Source: Deltaproteobacteria bacterium (GTDB lineage: Bacteria; Myxococcota; JACRCW01). Taken from it: a DNA stretch of 53,540 nt. The notes under the pieces were generated by a model. It worked only from the letters and a program-made list of their open reading frames with translations, was not told where the DNA came from and did not search any database. This document shows, piece after piece, positions 45,689-53,361 of this stretch. Each line of letters opens with the position of its first letter. Position 1 is the stretch's first letter. The stretch covers positions 1-53,540 of the forward strand of contig JACRCW010000043.1 of NCBI GenBank assembly GCA_016218805.1, in the 5' to 3' direction. The position numbers and the translations under genes were made by a program.

Positions 45689-48203
45689 ATGCACCAACGA
45701 CAAGTGAACGACTTGCTGTGTTCCCTGCTGGTTGTGCTGGGGGGCGTTTCCTGCACCGCGCGGTCCACGGGTGATTCGCCCAGTTCCTCCACGTCCGCCG
45801 GCGGCGTGGCGTCTTCCAGCGGGAGTCTGGTCGCCTCGGGAGACAGCCACGGCGGCCCGGCGTCCTCCGGCGCTGCCACCTCGGCGGGCAGCAGCAACCT
45901 GTCAGGCGGTGGGCTCAGCCCCATTGAACAGCGGATCGCTGAGCTTGCCGCGCCCTACGTGGACCCAACCGGTTCCACCGGAAAAGCCATTGGGCTTGTT
46001 GTCGGCGTATCCACGGGAACCACCCGGACCATCCTCGGCTTCGGTGCGCGGACCATCCACGGGGCAGTGGCACGGCCCGAACGACATCTTTGAGATTGGG
46101 TCCGTCACCAAGGTGTTCACGGGCTACCTCCTGGCGCGCGCGCTTGAGCAGGGCGCCGTCAGCCTGGATGACACGCTGGATGCCCACTTTCCCGGCGGCG
46201 CTCCCAGCTTCAACGGCCGGTCCATTGCCCTGATTGACCTCGCCACGCACACGTCCGGGCTCCCGGACTACCCCGGAAACATGCACTCCAGTGACCCGGC
46301 CAATCCGGGCGCGGGATACACCCAGCAGGACCTGGACGCGTTCATGGCGGCGTACCCGCTCACTGTCGAACCCGGCTCAACCTACCGCTACTCCAATCTC
46401 GGGGCGGGCACATTGGGCCACGTCCTGGTCCGCACCACCATGACCGCAGACTACGAGGCGCTTGTCCGGCAGGTCATCGCGGACCCGCTGCAGATGAACG
46501 ACACCCGGACCGTGCTGCTTCCCGCGCAGGAGCCCCGGCGCCTGCAAGGCTACCGGAATGGCCAACCGTCGCCGCGCCTGGACATTGGCGAGCCGCTGGC
46601 TGGTGGCGGGCTGCTGCGGTCCACGGCGCTGGACATGCTGACGTTCCTGGATGCGGCCCTGGGCGTTGGCCCGGCGCAGGCCGTCACCACGTGGGGGACC
46701 ACCCTCCTCCCGCGGCGGCAAAGTCCCCACGGCACCAACGGAGAGACGGGTCTGCTCATCAACATTGAGGATCACGCCGGCGGACGCCTGTACTCCAAGA
46801 ACGGGGGAACCCCCGGCTTCAGTTCGCAGATCACGCTGATGACCAACCCCCGCATTGCGGTGGTGCTCCTGGCCAACACCAACGGAACACAAGGGTTGAT
46901 GGAACTGGGCACCGCCTTGGTGGACCTGCTGAGGAGCGGCGGCGGCGGTTCGTCGTCTTCGGCGGGCGGCGCCACGTCTTTGGCGGGCACCGCGTGTGTC
47001 CCGGGCCGCCAGGTGCCATGCGCCTGCATGGGCGGAGCCCAGGGGGTCCAGGTGTGCCGGAATGATGGGAGCGGGTTTGATGCGTGCGTGTGCGGCACCG
47101 CGTCCTCCAGTGCGTCACCGGGGGGTGGGTCGGGATCCTCCGCAGCGGGTGCCACGTCGTCGTCCGCGTCTTCAGGGGCTTCCGGCCAATCCGGCATCAT
47201 TGACACGGTGGTGTCGCTGGATGCGTGCAAGCAACTGAGTCACCGCTGTCAGGCGGGCGACCCAGCGTCCTGCGGCACGTGCCAGTACCGGGTGCGGTAC
47301 AATGCGCAAGCGTGTTCGGCCAGCCAGCCGTGCGACAACCTGCTGCTGTACTGGTCTTTCATGGTCTGTGACGGCGCCAGCGTCCAGGGCATGCTTGATG
47401 GCGTGCTGGCCGCACACCCCAACTACATCACAGCGTGCGTCCAACCGTTGTATCCGGGCGAGATGATGCCGGTATCCCTGGGCGCTCCCGGGCGGGAGGC
47501 GCAGGTGGTTGGCGCGTTGTTCAGCGCGCTCAAGGATGCGCCCAACGCCGTTTGGACCGGCAAGAACCTCCTGCACGCGGGTTGCAGCTACGCCGCCTCG
47601 CGGTACCCCGTGGTGGCCGCGAGGTACCCCGACGACGCGCAGTGGCTGGGGAGCATGAAGAGCGCCGCCTGCTTCTCGGATGGAGTCGTCTCGGTCACCT
47701 ACCAGGACAGCTACGTGGGCCAGGGTATCGCCGCGGGGGGGGCGCAGTGCCAGGAGCGGCATGATCGCATTGCCGAGGCCTACACCGTCCTGGCTCCAAC
47801 CACCGGCCATGCATGCTCGGCGAGCCCGCAGGCGCAGTGCGCGTGCGATCCCAATCATGCCGTAAGGTCCTATCCCAATGACTGCGGGGGCGGTGATTGC
47901 GCGCTGTTTGATTCCATCGTGAGGCCCGCGGGCACCGGGTTCTCGCTGGCGCCGGGAGTGACAGCCGGCAGCTTTGCCGTCCCCAACTGGCGGATCATTT
48001 CCGAGGGCGACAGCTTCCGCACCACCAGCGACCGTTGCGCCCGCGACGTGGTGCCGGAGGCGCCCTTCAAGACGTTGTGTGATTCCCTGGAGGCCGACGC
48101 CGCTCGGACCTGCTCCTTTGTGGCGCGTCCCACCGCGGCACATTGCACGGATTTCCTCCAGAACATTGGAGCGCTGTGTGTGGACTGGTTTGACGCGCTG
48201 TGA
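45689..48203 (+). pseudogene. Serine hydrolase (class C beta-lactamase-like) lipoprotein fused to a Cys-rich domain, split by a frameshift near 46075
   Basis: Frame A has the signal peptide/GVSC and IGLVVGV, stopping at 46093. Frame B continues with FEIGSVTK (SxxK), LATHTSGL, YSN and KNGGTPGF. Confidence 0.78.
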
Positions 48204-48250: not shown

Positions 48251-48964
48251 TCAGAGGGAAGTAGTCAGGCGCACCAGCCACTCGGGTGCGGCGCGGGTTG
48301 CCCACCGCTCCACGGTCTTGTCTGCGCCGACGAGGATGGCGACGCCCAACGCGGCCATGGCCCACCCCATGGCGCGCTGCCCCGCGTCCCCCAGCGCCAG
48401 CAGGCGGCCGCGCCAGCGGGACAGCAACGTGCGGGACAACGCGCCGACGACCAGCAGCGGCAGTGCCGCACCGATGCCGAACGCCACCATGGATGCCGCA
48501 ACGTACGCCGTGCTTCCGCCCTGGCTGGCAAGCGACACGGCGCTTCCGAGCGTCGGGCCGATGCACGGGCTCCAGACCAAGCCAAGGAGCAGCCCGACAA
48601 CAAACTGGCCGTGCCAGCCTTGGGGCTGGAGGCGCCCGAGGAGTGAGCCGCCGACGCCAGCCGCTCCGGCAAGCCTGGCACTGAACCGGTGGTGCAGTGA
48701 CGGCGACGCCATCAGCACTCCAAAGACCAACATGGCCCCCGCTGCCACGGCTTGGACCGCCGACTGCTCCAGGCCGACGATCGTACCGAGCGTGGCCACG
48801 AAGGTCCCCACCACGGAGAACGACGCGGCGAGGCCAACCGCCAGTGCCGCCGGTCCAAACTGATGCGTCGCCGCCGCTGCCCCGACCAGAACCGGAGCGA
48901 GCGGCAGGACGCACGGCGAGAGGGACGTGAGCGCGCCGGCAAGGAAGACGAGGACGAGGGACAT
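48251..48964 (-). CDS. ccdA: Cytochrome c biogenesis CcdA/DsbD-beta family protein
   Basis: LSPCVLP and WSPCIGP transmembrane cysteines. Confidence 0.9.
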   Translation of the reverse strand: MSLVLVFLAGALTSLSPCVLPLAPVLVGAAAATHQFGPAALAVGLAASFSVVGTFVATLGTIVGLEQSAVQAVAAGAMLVFGVLMASPSLHHRFSARLAGAAGVGGSLLGRLQPQGWHGQFVVGLLLGLVWSPCIGPTLGSAVSLASQGGSTAYVAASMVAFGIGAALPLLVVGALSRTLLSRWRGRLLALGDAGQRAMGWAMAALGVAILVGADKTVERWATRAAPEWLVRLTTSL

Positions 48965-48997: not shown

Positions 48998-49360
48998 TCA
49001 CAGGGCGCGTCGGAGCAGCGCGGCCAGGCGCTGTGGATCGGCATCACCGACGGTCCGGCCCATTTCCTTGCCAGCCTTGAAGACGATGAGCGTGCTCTGT
49101 GAGTTGGCCTTGAGGGACCTGGCCATGTCCCTCTGTCCATCGAAGTCCAGGCGAAGCAGCGTCAACGAGGCGAACTCGGGTTCTGCAAGGATGTCCTTGA
49201 GCGCGGTGTCCTGCGCGCGGCACGTCGGGCACCAATCCGCCGCGACCAGGACGACGACGGGCTGGCCATTCTTCTGCAAGGCGTCGAAACCCGCCGTATC
49301 AAACGCCCTGGTGGCAGGGGTTGCCGAAAGAGCAGCTGCGAGAATGAGCGTGTTCAGCAT
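48998..49360 (-). CDS. Exported thioredoxin family protein
   Basis: Signal-like N-terminus, ADWCPTC, QSTLIVFK. Confidence 0.9.
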   Translation of the reverse strand: MLNTLILAAALSATPATRAFDTAGFDALQKNGQPVVVLVAADWCPTCRAQDTALKDILAEPEFASLTLLRLDFDGQRDMARSLKANSQSTLIVFKAGKEMGRTVGDADPQRLAALLRRAL

Positions 49361-49388
49361 GTGGTGGCTCCGTTGTTTCGGGTTGGTG

Positions 49389-49417
49389 CATCGTCCCTGC
49401 GGCGTGGCCGGCGTTAC
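49389..49417 (-). promoter_or_regulatory. Putative ECF promoter GTAACG-N16-GACGATG upstream of thioredoxin-ccdA
   Basis: Minus-strand copy with the same spacing. Confidence 0.7.
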
Positions 49418-49890
49418 TCGCGGATCCCGGGTCGTTTTGAACCGCGTGACGGCCGAACGTGCGCGACGACGGCGGCGAGCGTTTCCGGACGTTCCAACTC
49501 GGATTCGTCGACCAGGAGTGTTGCCGCCCGCACGTAGGCGCTCGACGATCGCGTCCCCGCCGACGCGATGCGAAGACGCGCCCCCGCAAGCACGGCGAGC
49601 GACGCGGGCATGATGATCGGAACGCCCGCAAGGCGGGGCACGGCCTCAATCAGCCGCTCCGCCAGATCGAGCCCGTTGACGGCGTTGCCTGCCTCGTCCG
49701 TATGAGCGTGGAAGGGAACGACCAGGACGTCCGTGGTGCGCCCCCGCACTGCCCGGATGACCTGTTCGTCCGTCGCGCCTCCCGGGATGATGTCCTGCTC
49801 ATCCACGGGCAGGCCGGCTTTCTCCAGCAGGGCCAGCACGCGTGTCCGGATGAGGGGCCCGTATGGGCGGAGGATGGTGACGTGTGCCAT
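49414..49890 (-). CDS. Hypothetical alpha/beta protein
   Basis: MAHVTILRPY start; DVLVVPFH...NGLDL...VPIIMP weakly resembles a receiver fold. Confidence 0.65.
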   Translation of the reverse strand: MAHVTILRPYGPLIRTRVLALLEKAGLPVDEQDIIPGGATDEQVIRAVRGRTTDVLVVPFHAHTDEAGNAVNGLDLAERLIEAVPRLAGVPIIMPASLAVLAGARLRIASAGTRSSSAYVRAATLLVDESELERPETLAAVVAHVRPSRGSKRPGIRE

Positions 49891-49898
49891 GTCCTTCA

Positions 49899-49923
49899 GT
49901 CCGGCAGAAGCTGATCCCGTTAC
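49899..49923 (-). promoter_or_regulatory. Putative ECF promoter GTAACG-N16-GAC upstream of the hypothetical gene
   Basis: Minus-strand copy with the same spacing, ending 8 nt before the ATG. Confidence 0.6.
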
Positions 49924-50096
49924 ACCCTGGCGAAGCACCCACCGCCATTTCCGGTTGGTCACGGGACCGTGAGGGGATTCCCGGTGGCGCGTCACGGTGC
50001 TGCGCGGCCATCAGTCATGGTGTCCCATGTCGGGAAGCCGCCTTGACTGGTGCGCTGATGCGTGGGCGACACAGGTGGGTTGTTCGCGGATCAGGC

Positions 50097-50125
50097 GTAA
50101 CGCTTTGCGCCGCGCGGTGACGGTA
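50097..50125 (+). promoter_or_regulatory. Putative ECF promoter GTAACG-N16-GACGGTA upstream of the sigma gene
   Basis: The motif recurs with identical spacing at three other local sites. Confidence 0.75.
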
Positions 50126-50271
50126 CTTGGTACCAGTGCGAGGTGCGGGTGCGCACTCGCGACGGGTCGACGGAACTCGGAGTGTGGACGCCGGCGCGCG
50201 GGAAACATTGAGCAACGCCGCGTTCCATGGGAGGAGCGGCCGTGACTGGCCGCCGGGAGGGTCACGGGTTG

Positions 50272-50874
50272 ATGGATGAAGCCGTCCTTCTGGAGAGACT
50301 GCGCCGCGGCGATGAGGCGGCGTTCAGCCATCTCGTGGAAAGGCACCACCGCCCGCTGCTCCGCCTCGCGCGGTCGTTCGTGTCGAGCCAGGCCGTGGCG
50401 GAGGAAGTGGTGCAGGACACGTGGGTGGCCGTCATCACGGGCCTGCCAACATTCGAGGCGCGCTCCAGCCTCAAGACCTGGATATTCCGCATCCTGGCCA
50501 ACCGCGCCAGGACCCGCGGCGTCCGCGAGGGACGCTCGGTCCCGTTTTCCTCGCTCAGCGGTGACGACGAGCCCGCTGTGGACGCGTCTCGGTTCAGCGC
50601 GAACGGAATGTGGTCCAGGCCACCGGAAGCGTGGGACGGAAACGCGCCCGATACGATCCTGATGAACGGCGAGGCGATGCGCAGCCTTTCCCGCGCGATG
50701 GAGGAGCTTCCACCGGCGCAGGCCGCCGTCGTCACGCTGCGTGACGTGGCGGGTATGGATTCGGCGGAGGTCTGTAGCGTCCTCGAGATCTCCGAGACCA
50801 ATCAGCGGGTCTTGCTCCATCGCGCGCGGTCGAAACTGCGGCGCGTGCTGGAGGAACACGTGGGCGCCAAGTAG
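50272..50874 (+). CDS. ECF RNA polymerase sigma factor
   Basis: GDEAAF, AEEVVQDTW, SSLKTWIFRILAN, LRDV.G....EV...L......RVLLHRAR. Confidence 0.93.
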   Translation: MDEAVLLERLRRGDEAAFSHLVERHHRPLLRLARSFVSSQAVAEEVVQDTWVAVITGLPTFEARSSLKTWIFRILANRARTRGVREGRSVPFSSLSGDDEPAVDASRFSANGMWSRPPEAWDGNAPDTILMNGEAMRSLSRAMEELPPAQAAVVTLRDVAGMDSAEVCSVLEISETNQRVLLHRARSKLRRVLEEHVGAK

Positions 50875-50877
50875 GAG

Positions 50878-51117
50878 ATGAGCATGCTGACCTGCCAAGG
50901 CCTGACGGAACTTGTGACGGACTACCTGGAGGGGCGCCTGCCCTTCACAAGGTGGCTGAGTTTCCAGATGCACCTGGGAATGTGCCGGCACTGCCGCGGC
51001 TACCTGCGCCAGATGAAGGTGACGGTGGCCACGCTGGGCCACCTGCCGCCGGAACCCATGCCCCCGGCGATCCGGGATGAACTCCTCAGGCGGTTCAAGG
51101 ACATGCGCTCGGCGTGA
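50878..51117 (+). CDS. zf-HC2 (ZAS) soluble anti-sigma factor
   Basis: LTC......VTDYLEG...HLGMCRHC (HxxxCxxC). Confidence 0.9.
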   Translation: MSMLTCQGLTELVTDYLEGRLPFTRWLSFQMHLGMCRHCRGYLRQMKVTVATLGHLPPEPMPPAIRDELLRRFKDMRSA

Positions 51118-51137
51118 AATCCGCAGGGCCTGGCCGT

Positions 51138-51166
51138 GTAACGATCCGGCAACTCTCCAGACGGTA
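51138..51166 (+). promoter_or_regulatory. Putative ECF promoter GTAACG-N16-GACGGTA upstream of the EKSCGG peptide gene
   Basis: Both boxes are identical to the copy at 50097. Confidence 0.75.
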
Positions 51167-51291
51167 TCCACAGGAGCAGCACCCCGGCACATTTGGGTCG
51201 GCCGCTGGTGGGCAGTGGCCGCCACACGCGCCGCCGAGAGGTCCTCGGCGCGCCCCGGGGCAACGAGCCGGGTCTCCGGCAGGAGCGAGTC

Positions 51292-51504
51292 ATGTCCAAT
51301 ATGAAACTGGTCGCAGCGGTGGTGTGTGGGTTGGCGTTTTCGTCGGTGGGCGCGCTCGCGTCACCGGGGGCCTCCGTGGCCGAGAAGAAGGATGACAAGA
51401 AGAAGAAGGACGACAAGAAGGGCGGCGAGAAGAGCTGCGGCGGCGACAAGGGCGGCGGCGAAAAGTCCTGTGGCGGAGAGAAGAGTTGCGGCGGACAGAA
51501 GTAG
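51292..51504 (+). CDS. Secreted low-complexity peptide with three EKSCGG repeats (HvfA/oxazolin-like precursor candidate)
   Basis: aggag RBS; signal peptide ending ALA; K/D-rich spacer; GGEKSCGGDKGGGEKSCGGEKSCGGQK. Confidence 0.82.
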   Translation: MSNMKLVAAVVCGLAFSSVGALASPGASVAEKKDDKKKKDDKKGGEKSCGGDKGGGEKSCGGEKSCGGQK

Positions 51505-52586
51505 CCAGGCGCTGAGAGCCCGCGACGCGTCGTCGGAACTGCCCGACGCCTCGCGGGGACCGCGCCCAAGCGCGCGCGAAACCGGAGGCGCTGCCGCGCT
51601 CGCGCGGCCTCAGCCCGTTAGCCGTTCGGGTACTGGATCTTGGGGTGTGGGCCGGTGTTGTCGGGCGCGCATCACGACGAGCGCCGGCTCAGGCGGCGGG
51701 CGCGAACAGCCATGGCGGAGCGTGGTGCTCGACGGCAGCGCCGCAGCAGACGGTCAGGAACGCCAGGACGTTCCTGTTCTGCCTATGCGCGGTGGCGCCG
51801 TGTTTGTGCCGGCGGCCTCAGACGCGGTGGCCGCGACCCCCGGGTTGGGACCTCGCCCGTATCACCCCGTGGGCGGCGTGTTCATGGGCGCCGTGCCGGG
51901 TGGCTCCTGGGTCTCACCGTCCGGCCGGGTGCGTGTCGGGCGCAGGCGGCGCAGCGCACTCCGGAAGGACATGCGCTCGAACTTCTGAGCGGTTGCCGGT
52001 TCATTCCAATAGGCGCTCATTTCCGCACGTACGGGCGTGCCGCGCAAGGAGCACAGCCAGGGTGAGCAGCCGATCCCGCAACTGCTTCATTTCCGCCTGT
52101 GACCGCACTCCAATGAGCGCCAGCACATCCCGGCCTTCGGCTGCCGTCAGCAGGCGTTCGCCTTCACGGATGTCCGCATCCGACCACCTCCAACCGCGTG
52201 TCCTCAACGCTCTGATCGGGTTCCATCACCTCGGTGACCAGTGTGGCCAGCGGTTCTCTCAACCTGGCCAGTATTTCCTGCAGTGCGTCCGCTGATTCCA
52301 CGGGTTTCAGCTCGCGCAGGACAAGCGCCTGCGCGTCAGTTATTTGGACTGGCGTCAACCACCTCCAAGCAGCGTTGTTGTCTTGGGGCACGGCCCCCCG
52401 CCGCGTGTGCCTGCCCGCTCAGCCCTCGCCCTATTGAAGGCGCAACCACGCGCCGCGCGAGTACGACATTTGGCGGAGGGCGCGGGAAAGCCAGCCGAGA
52501 GCACCTGTCTCATCAGCGAGAATTCGCCGTCCACCCGCAATCGACGCTGCGGGCGGGGACGAGGCGGATCGATCCTGAGCCACGTC

Positions 52587-52944: not shown

Positions 52945-53361
52945 TCACGCCTTACGCGCGGCCACCGCAGCGCGGACGAATGGAGCAAATGCCAGGTCCT
53001 CGTTCTTGATGTGACGCAGCTCCTTGAGCAGGAACCCATTGGTGCGGATGAGCAGGTGCTCACGCGGGCCCACGCTTTCCAGATGCCTGAGGAGGCGCTG
53101 AAAGTCCGTCGCGAGAGAGGCGTGCCGCCGCGCATGCGCGGCAACCGCGGAGAACCCCGTTGCCGTCAGCAGCGCCTCTTCCGTCCTGAAATGGAGGTGG
53201 GTGCCCAGGAAGTCCAACACGCTCCTGATTTCCTCGGCGCCCCGCCCCGTGACACAAGCCGCGAACAGGACGTTGGCACGGCGAAAGAGCTCCCTGTGTT
53301 GGATGTCAAGCTCCGGGATGCCCGTCTCAAGAGCGGGGTCCCAGTCAAACCGGATTGTCAT
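52945..53361 (-). CDS. Single-domain bacteriohemerythrin
   Basis: FDWDPALETG..ELDIQH, HFRTEE, HARRH, HIKNED. Confidence 0.87.
   Translation of the reverse strand: MTIRFDWDPALETGIPELDIQHRELFRRANVLFAACVTGRGAEEIRSVLDFLGTHLHFRTEEALLTATGFSAVAAHARRHASLATDFQRLLRHLESVGPREHLLIRTNGFLLKELRHIKNEDLAFAPFVRAAVAARKA

Follow-up and report, generated by a model that had tools for sequence, protein, structure and literature searches.

An EKSCGG-repeat precursor gene of the captophorin class, with a candidate ECF promoter, in a Myxococcota-like genome that appears to have lost its maturase pair

The stretch of DNA analyzed here comprises 53,540 nucleotides (contig JACRCW010000043.1 of the Deltaproteobacteria bacterium assembly GCA_016218805.1; hereafter, the window) and carries on its forward strand, at 51292-51504, a gene for a 70-residue peptide with three EKSCGG motifs. 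The gene is real and conserved. As judged by its sequence and that of its relatives, the peptide is a precursor of the HvfA/oxazolin (Buf_EGKCG, captophorin) type, the members of which are modified by MNIO (DUF692) enzymes. It stands behind its own candidate promoter of the extracytoplasmic function (ECF) type, which is common to the adjacent operon of an ECF sigma factor and its anti-sigma factor. The genome, designated G000, appears from sequence comparison to have lost the canonical MNIO/DUF2063 enzyme pair. The reading favored here, which is held with about even confidence, is that of an ECF-induced captophorin-type precursor that persists after the loss of its maturase and is exported without modification.

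The precursor peptide gene

The ATG of the gene lies 174 bp past the ECF sigma/zf-HC2 anti-sigma pair and is preceded, at a distance of 6 nt, by the Shine–Dalgarno-like sequence AGGAG at 51281-51285 (+). Residues 1-23 form a Sec-like signal as judged by eye, with an n-region that contains Lys5, a hydrophobic stretch, and the residues A-L-A ahead of Ser24; by the same judgment, this look is common to all 15 aligned family members. The signal is followed by a Lys/Asp-rich spacer and by the three EKSCGG motifs, which start at 51427, 51460, and 51478. The predicted mature peptide consists of 47 residues, among them 13 Lys, 12 Gly, 9 Asp/Glu, and 3 Cys. This anatomy—signal peptide, spacer, and three repeats directly after a sigma/anti-sigma pair—is the one described in the initial annotation of the stretch, which was made from the sequence without database searches.

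In the six-frame translation of the 6.43-Mb genome, the hexapeptide EKSCGG has only six occurrences, of which this open reading frame (ORF) accounts for three and a paralogue on contig C144 for the other three. The sister genome G001 also carries two precursor copies, on its contigs C505 and C98. The window copy and the C505 copy have the same C-terminal ending and are, hence, probably orthologues. For every pair among the four genes (six comparisons), the ratio of nonsynonymous to synonymous substitutions (dN/dS) is 0.10-0.13 at a dS of 0.9-1.5, with the two paralogues of G000 at a dS of 0.92 and a dN/dS of 0.13. Both copies in G000 retain all Cys motifs, the start codon, and the ribosome-binding site (RBS), and their G+C content at third codon positions (GC3) of 0.81 is typical of the genome. 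Pfam and NCBIfam scans of the peptide return no match, even at E 10. A hairpin 3′ of the stop codon with −41.1 kcal/mol is no better than those of shuffled sequences (z 0.04), and the terminator scan yields none near the gene.

The spacer is the subject of two further observations. On contig C147, a secreted Cys-less protein (L007 1234-1746, −) features a similar signal peptide, the same VAEKKDDKKKK start, and Lys/Glu/Asp-rich repeats (…EEAPKAI…); it may be a Cys-less relative of the peptide spacer. Over the Lys/Asp-spacer codons of the C144 paralogue (L008 8055-8131), the depth of metagenome contigs goes up about ten-fold with many loose ends, and other organisms of the same groundwater samples, therefore, carry similar spacers.

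The peptide family and its linkage to MNIO and DUF2063 genes

A first protein search through the 401 genomes of the phylum returned weak matches of one anatomy: a signal peptide, a Lys/Ala/Asp spacer, and EKSC[GS]G or EKGC[GS]G repeats, the usual repeat form within the phylum. This phylum is probably Myxococcota; records of Nannocystis, Enhygromyxa, Bradymonadia, and "Myxococcota bacterium" are the named relatives of another gene of G000. The family profile A1, which was built from 15 peptides, matches 58 of the 401 genomes at a threshold of E 0.001 or better. Linkage was queried with the MNIO and DUF2063 (PME1) proteins of the sister genome G001 itself, and homologues of both lie directly 3′ of the peptide gene in 25 of 30 fetched loci. 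The five unlinked loci are the window, the C505 copy of G001, and three loci of the f18 family (L061, L077, and L078); the genomes of the latter carry MNIO genes elsewhere, and no sigma/anti-sigma genes were found near these three orphan peptides. The C98 paralogue of G001 is followed by an MNIO gene, which reaches 344.7 bits with PF05114, 309.5 with the NCBIfam model MNIO_BufB, and 295.5 with the HvfB model, and then by a second gene with 44.5 bits to PF09836 and 70.4 to the HvfC model. Genes of these two Pfam families are adjacent to the precursor in homologues and not in G000.

A metagenome scan with the peptide gave 75 loci, of which 69 match the signal-peptide part only—mostly in gut assemblies—and were set aside. 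In four of the six relevant contigs that were used (L159-L163 and L224), an MNIO gene lies 3′ of the peptide. The initial annotation had likened the peptide to MNIO-modified precursors and had called for a neighborhood analysis of EKSCG peptides; the linkage in fetched loci and metagenome contigs bears this resemblance out.

The repeat departs from the EGKCG pentapeptide of the class: EKSCGG retains the initial Glu, the Cys, and the following Gly and features a Lys two residues before the Cys. The variant is already present in published tables. Dataset S2 of PMC13097082 contains 13 occurrences of EKSCG in Cys-rich ORFs adjoining PME1 genes and gives EKSCG and KSCGG as repeat units, and Dataset S1 of the same paper contains 39 occurrences of "Myxococc" among MNIO–PME1 pairs. 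No discussion of the EKSCG variant repeat was found in the literature searches, and "Myxococc" occurs zero times in the main text of PMC12452194 and PMC13097082.

The ECF sigma factor, its ZAS anti-sigma factor, and the candidate promoters

The operon 5′ of the peptide gene encodes an ECF sigma factor at 50227-50874 (+), with the domains Sigma70_r2 (PF04542) and r4_2 (PF08281) in the Pfam/NCBIfam scan, and a zf-HC2 (ZAS) anti-sigma factor of 79 residues at 50878-51117 (+; PF13490, and NF052368 with 55.1 bits against a cutoff of 50). The anti-sigma factor features Cys6 and the motif His32-x3-Cys36-x2-Cys39 and no membrane segment, as judged by eye. The pair belongs to the ECF/ZAS systems in that the sigma factor has regions 2 and 4 only and an H-x3-C-x2-C anti-sigma factor is co-encoded downstream. 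In a sequence search of the PDB, the anti-sigma factor has no match at E 1, and the sigma factor matches generic ECF structures only.

Across the phylum, the sigma/ZAS pair is found in physical linkage with MNIO clusters. Homologues of the anti-sigma factor (E 1e-8 or better) occur in 74 of the 401 genomes, and a sigma gene adjoins them in 26 of 30 fetched loci. By comparison of coordinates, an MNIO gene lies within 3 kb of an anti-sigma homologue on one contig in at least 19 of the 72 other genomes (G028, G133, G143, G169, G176, G210, G216, G229, G231, G238, G244, G275, G282, G287, G301, G364, G369, G376, and G386); several further genomes have the two at a distance of 9-59 kb or on separate contigs. 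Five such loci were checked directly, and four of them lie beside MNIO operons with DUF2282-like precursors. In G244, the sigma/ZAS pair is divergent from an operon of an EKxCG precursor, an MNIO, and PME1, and the pair itself is followed by a gene for a thioredoxin-like lipoprotein. A third lineage, known from two short metagenome contigs (L224 and L160), combines a sigma gene with a ZAS gene that is convergent and 51% identical; a three-motif peptide and YceI are encoded there as well, and the 1 kb downstream holds no MNIO gene.

Promoter motifs were compared by exact pattern searches. These yield two ECF-type candidates of the form GTAACG-N18-CGGTA: one at 50097-50125 (+), 5′ of the sigma gene, which points to putative autoregulation, and one at 51138-51166 (+), about 125 nt 5′ of the peptide ATG. 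The pattern GTAAC[GC]-N17-19-C[GC]GTA has five matches in the 6.43-Mb genome, two of which are the sites of the sigma gene and the peptide gene, both in the right orientation. The 11 Mb of G001 contain eight matches, one of which—GTAACG-N18-CCGTA—lies about 70 nt 5′ of the orthologous peptide; in addition, GTAACG-N18-CCGTT stands before the anti-sigma paralogue of G001, 1 kb from this peptide. Four of the eight GTAACG hexamers of the window are located between 49417 and 51138, each facing a gene (trx-ccdA, the gene of a 158-residue protein, the sigma gene, and the peptide gene). Four of them in 1.8 kb correspond to a Poisson P of 1.4e-5, a post hoc value based on the genome density of 0.077 per kb. 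A scan of 49300-51800 for sigma-70-like promoters found none. The ECF link of the peptide that the initial annotation had suggested is, hence, upheld by the adjoining pair, the shared promoter motif, and the linkage of sigma/ZAS pairs to MNIO genes in other genomes.

GTAAC sites were also seen near the sigma/ZAS–MNIO loci of other genomes; their −10 elements are variable, and they were not counted as support. The 8-mer CCACACGC occurs upstream of three of the four peptide copies (window 51225-51240; L008 ~8440, −; and L010 ~7215) and may be a matter of chance in GC-rich DNA.

Apparent loss of the MNIO/DUF2063 pair

The window contains no DUF692 or DUF2063 gene, as had been noted from the sequence at the outset. 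The assembly of G000 has 6.43 Mb on 170 contigs and is estimated to be 92.4% complete. A profile search of the whole genome yields only 65.5 bits for PF05114, on contig C42, and nothing for PF09836. In a tblastn search of the MNIO and PME1 proteins of G001 against all 170 contigs, the best MNIO match is the same gene on C42 (E 1e-4), and PME1 has nothing below E 0.9. The genome search that the initial annotation had recommended, hence, confirms the peptide as an orphan with regard to a canonical pair but adds one weak and divergent MNIO, which is discussed below.

The locus of the C144 paralogue is orthologous to the C98 locus of G001, with a flanking SurA-like gene and a flanking Met-zincin gene that are 65% and 62% identical. 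In the position of the two enzyme genes of G001, only approximately 230 bp separate the peptide stop of G000 from the convergent SurA-like gene. This junction is spanned without differences by contigs of two samples of one study, the probable source sample (X1) and another (X2), and no alternative joint was reported for it. Because adjacency of peptide, MNIO, and PME1 is the rule in the phylum, a deletion in the lineage of G000 is the simplest reading. A canonical MNIO (best E 1e-53 or better) is present in 54 of the 58 peptide-positive genomes. Those without are G000 and the genomes G017, G106, and G399, the latter three with weak or interrupted peptide matches. Over the whole phylum, MNIO genes were tallied at 587 places in 258 of 401 genomes, the unpublished G195, which enters no other result, included. 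Searches at the family, order, and class level found 2, 2, and 4 genomes, with G001 as the sole further member of the family and order—so few that the loss is not datable.

Neighboring genes

The minus strand 5′ of the sigma operon carries two genes of thiol electron transfer: a secreted thioredoxin at 48998-49360 (−), which is tentatively a member of the regulon because of a GTAACG at 49417 (−), and, downstream of it, a CcdA/DsbD_TM membrane transporter of thiol electrons at 48251-48964 (−), both assigned by the Pfam/NCBIfam scan. They are followed toward the sigma gene by a conserved protein of approximately 158 residues at 49414-49890 (−), which has no Pfam/NCBIfam match and a GTAACG just upstream at 49923 (−) as a tentative link. 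A homologue of this protein adjoins the anti-sigma paralogue in G001 (L011 6093-6530, −).

Near the ECF-linked peptide copies, a YceI-family gene is observed in the C505 region of G001 (L011 5317-8200) and in the two metagenome contigs of the third lineage (L160 386-967 and L224 882-1043). In the C505 region, the gene of a secreted AhpC/TSA peroxiredoxin, in addition, separates the anti-sigma paralogue from the peptide. Within the window, an 823-residue protein at 45732-48203 (+) combines a beta-lactamase fold (PF00144) with Ser/Gly linkers and a long Cys-rich C-terminal region without a family match. A hemerythrin-domain protein (PF01814) at 52945-53361 (−), 1.4 kb downstream of the peptide, may be oxygen- or redox-related.

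Comparison with known systems

HvfA (oxazolin) of Haemophilus influenzae, FonA (fontiphorin), and NgoA (gonophorin) are EGKCG-repeat precursors that are modified by an MNIO and PME1 (PMC13097082). The Buf_EGKCG/oxazolin precursors number approximately 2,000, the majority of them in Pseudomonadota; they feature a Sec signal peptide and EGKCG repeats, and their clusters hold MNIO, DUF2063, and DoxX genes (PMC12452194). The enzymes install 5-thiooxazoles; the work that established this revised the structure of oxazolin, demonstrated Cu binding, and named the class captophorins, which are stress-induced (PMC13097082). The initial annotation had attributed to HvfA-type precursors a Cys modification that gives a copper-binding product; the binding of Cu stands, but the chemistry has been reassigned from oxazolone/thioamide to 5-thiooxazole (PMC13097082).

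The window peptide resembles HvfA, FonA, and NgoA in being short and charged, in its tandem Glu-initial Cys-Gly repeats, and in that its relatives lie directly 5′ of MNIO and DUF2063 genes. It features several differences compared with them: the six-residue repeat EKSCGG; Ser or Gly instead of Lys before the Cys; and only three Cys. With Ser or Gly at this position, it fits neither the published "Lys-Cys" nor the published "Cys-Lys" group. Furthermore, a DoxX gene was not seen, G000 lacks the enzyme pair, and the gene stands alone behind its own candidate ECF promoter. The homologous cluster of H. influenzae and Neisseria is under the control of an ECF sigma factor with a small ZAS anti-sigma factor (PMC7907618).

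BufA1 and BufA2 of Caulobacter, which belong to the SigF–NrsF system (PMC11626156, PMC3511200), are Sec-exported Cys peptides of an ECF regulon, as is predicted for the peptide of the window, and are modified by MNIO/DUF2063 enzymes and protective against Cu. The bufferin operons are transcribed under SigF from promoters of the form GTAACC-N16-CGAA (PMC3511200), the −35 element of which, GTAAC, resembles the one found here, and the same sigma/ZAS pair also adjoins DUF2282-like precursor operons in this phylum. Bufferins, unlike the peptide, are folded domains (DUF2282, BUF_6/12Cys) with four or six conserved Cys, a disulfide, and no tandem repeats. Their anti-sigma factor NrsF (DUF1109) is a membrane protein, whereas the ZAS protein of the window is soluble.

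The regulatory pair is similar to RpoE2–HrsE of H. influenzae, SigE–MseR of Neisseria, and SigR–RsrA of Streptomyces: a 79-residue Cys-x25-His-x3-Cys-x2-Cys anti-sigma factor without a membrane segment is encoded after the sigma factor, the promoter is putatively autoregulatory, and the targets would include a captophorin precursor and perhaps thiol-redox genes. It differs from them in that the anti-sigma factor has no sequence match to solved anti-sigma structures.

Stand-alone bufferin/oxazolin precursors and rare genomes without an MNIO are noted in the survey PMC12452194, which offers a relic explanation. G000 is like these cases in having a precursor unlinked to an MNIO and a genome without the enzymes; among the cases of the survey, none is described with a dedicated ECF promoter, a deletion seen by synteny, or an analysis of selection.

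Proposed mechanism and alternatives

In the proposed mechanism, thiol-oxidative or copper/soft-metal stress would inactivate the ZAS anti-sigma factor and free the sigma factor, which would transcribe its own operon and the peptide gene from the GTAACG-N18-CGGTA promoters. The peptide would be exported by Sec. In the relatives, the adjacent MNIO and its DUF2063 partner would convert each repeat Cys to a 5-thiooxazole before export, which would give a periplasmic Cu-binding peptide. In G000, the enzyme pair would have been deleted from the ancestral locus and none was found elsewhere; the cysteines of the two precursors, therefore, most likely stay free on export, and the resulting Lys/Gly-rich peptides of 47 residues and three thiols would act in the envelope as buffers of Cu(I), soft metals, or oxidants. 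The neighboring thioredoxin–CcdA pair possibly holds the peptide in the reduced state (a peroxiredoxin is found in G001 and a thioredoxin-like protein in G244). A thiol buffer of this kind is one of the two alternatives of the initial annotation and is in line with the data. The most specific form of this proposal, namely that two precursors stay under selection after deletion of the MNIO/PME1 pair, one of them under ECF/ZAS control, and work as plain tri-thiol peptides serviced by thioredoxin–CcdA, is put forward tentatively and with more doubt than confidence.

Four other explanations have to be weighed. A chance low-complexity ORF in GC-rich DNA would be in line with the lack of a Pfam or NCBIfam match and with the many spurious ORFs that overlap the gene in this window of 70% GC. 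Its probability is, however, close to nil, given four conserved copies with a dN/dS of about 0.1, family members directly 5′ of MNIO genes in 25 of 30 loci, an RBS and a candidate promoter, and the confinement of EKSCGG to the two precursor genes within the genome. Modification in trans, which the initial annotation had considered, would fall to the divergent MNIO of contig C42 (L002 8088-8969) together with a 310-residue partner protein; both genes (L002 8088-9817) lie outside the window. This MNIO is the only PF05114 match of the genome, its partner gene is conserved on the 3′ side in 63 of 80 fetched loci of the family, it is divergent from a CopZ-like copper-chaperone gene in G000, and it is absent from G001, which retains the canonical pair. 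It scores, however, far under the model cutoffs (60.3 bits versus 310 for BufB and 44.5 versus 360 for HvfB), and the partner neither matches PF09836 nor resembles PME1 (E 0.29). The family is widely conserved, with 57-69% identity across the 80 loci from Myxococcota, Eisenbacteria, Entotheonella, and others, and in none of them does an EKSCG-like peptide lie within 5 kb. The CopZ link was rejected, since a CopZ-like neighbor occurs in one of the 80 loci. As the family is never near such peptides and its partner is unlike PME1, modification in trans is unsupported and very improbable.

The two remaining alternatives concern the fate of the canonical pair. The precursors could be relics, the maturase of which was lost recently and which are no longer useful or expressed and will decay. 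This is the explanation that the survey PMC12452194 offers for the rare orphan genomes, and it would fit a loss that is undatable with only two genomes in the family. The preserved Cys motifs, start codon, RBS, and GC3 of both copies, the intact promoter candidate 5′ of the window copy, which is identical in design to that of the sigma gene, and the dS and dN/dS values of the G000 paralogues argue against it, and it is considered unlikely. Alternatively, the peptide could be the precursor of a genuine RiPP (a peptide made on the ribosome and modified after translation), with a canonical MNIO/PME1 pair relocated into the unassembled ~8% of the genome and a 5-thiooxazole captophorin as the product. 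The completeness of 92.4% on 170 contigs, the presence of a canonical MNIO in 54 of 58 peptide-positive genomes, the purifying selection on two intact precursors, the G001 pair that already serves a second, unlinked, ECF-controlled copy, and the rarity of genomes without the enzymes in the survey PMC12452194 speak for this relocation. It requires, however, both a relocation and an assembly gap, while the ancestral site is cleanly empty—as confirmed by contigs of two samples—and no contig or contig end carries a fragment of either gene; it is judged to be similarly unlikely.

Several points count against an unmodified, ECF-induced precursor, which is nonetheless the preferred reading. The ECF-type promoters are recognized by their motif, and the sigma gene of G001 as well as the MNIO-linked and C144-type peptide copies are without the exact motif. 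The GTAACG sites before trx and the gene of the 158-residue protein have deviant −10 elements, and matches of the pattern with two mismatches are near chance (19 found versus 12.4 expected); these two sites are, therefore, tentative. The free-thiol function and the link to thioredoxin–CcdA are conjectures from composition and proximity and a weak promoter match. A look-up of RNA runs that contain the stretch returned none. Selection was measured over the whole divergence and not since the loss, so that the values are compatible with a recent loss and genes that have not decayed. Finally, at the given completeness and contig number, a relocated enzyme pair could lie in the missing part.

Novelty and implications

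Stand-alone precursors, rare enzyme-less genomes, and ECF/ZAS control in Neisseria and Haemophilus are already in print. Four observations are new: the EKSCGG register of the repeat occurs in a Myxococcota-like lineage; a precursor copy stands behind a candidate ECF promoter of its own and recurs in three lineages; loss of the maturase is documented by synteny, with the two precursors still intact; and sigma/ZAS pairs of this family are associated with MNIO clusters in the phylum. Apart from these points, the peptide is an expected member of a known family.

Captophorins—the oxazolins and bufferins—form a very large and recently recognized class of copper-handling peptides, and the published survey raises the question of whether the precursors act without thiooxazole modification. 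The locus is a natural test case for this, with a clean syntenic loss of the enzymes, two intact precursors, and a candidate dedicated stress promoter. It extends the ECF/ZAS control known from Neisseria and Haemophilus to a Myxococcota-like phylum, and its repeat register, with the Lys two residues before the Cys, is outside the substrate rules worked out for FonB. If the precursors do act as unmodified tri-thiol peptides, the repeat scaffold would have a protective activity that is independent of modification, and the ECF-linked, MNIO-unlinked copy found in three lineages would be a distinct functional module and not a spare substrate.

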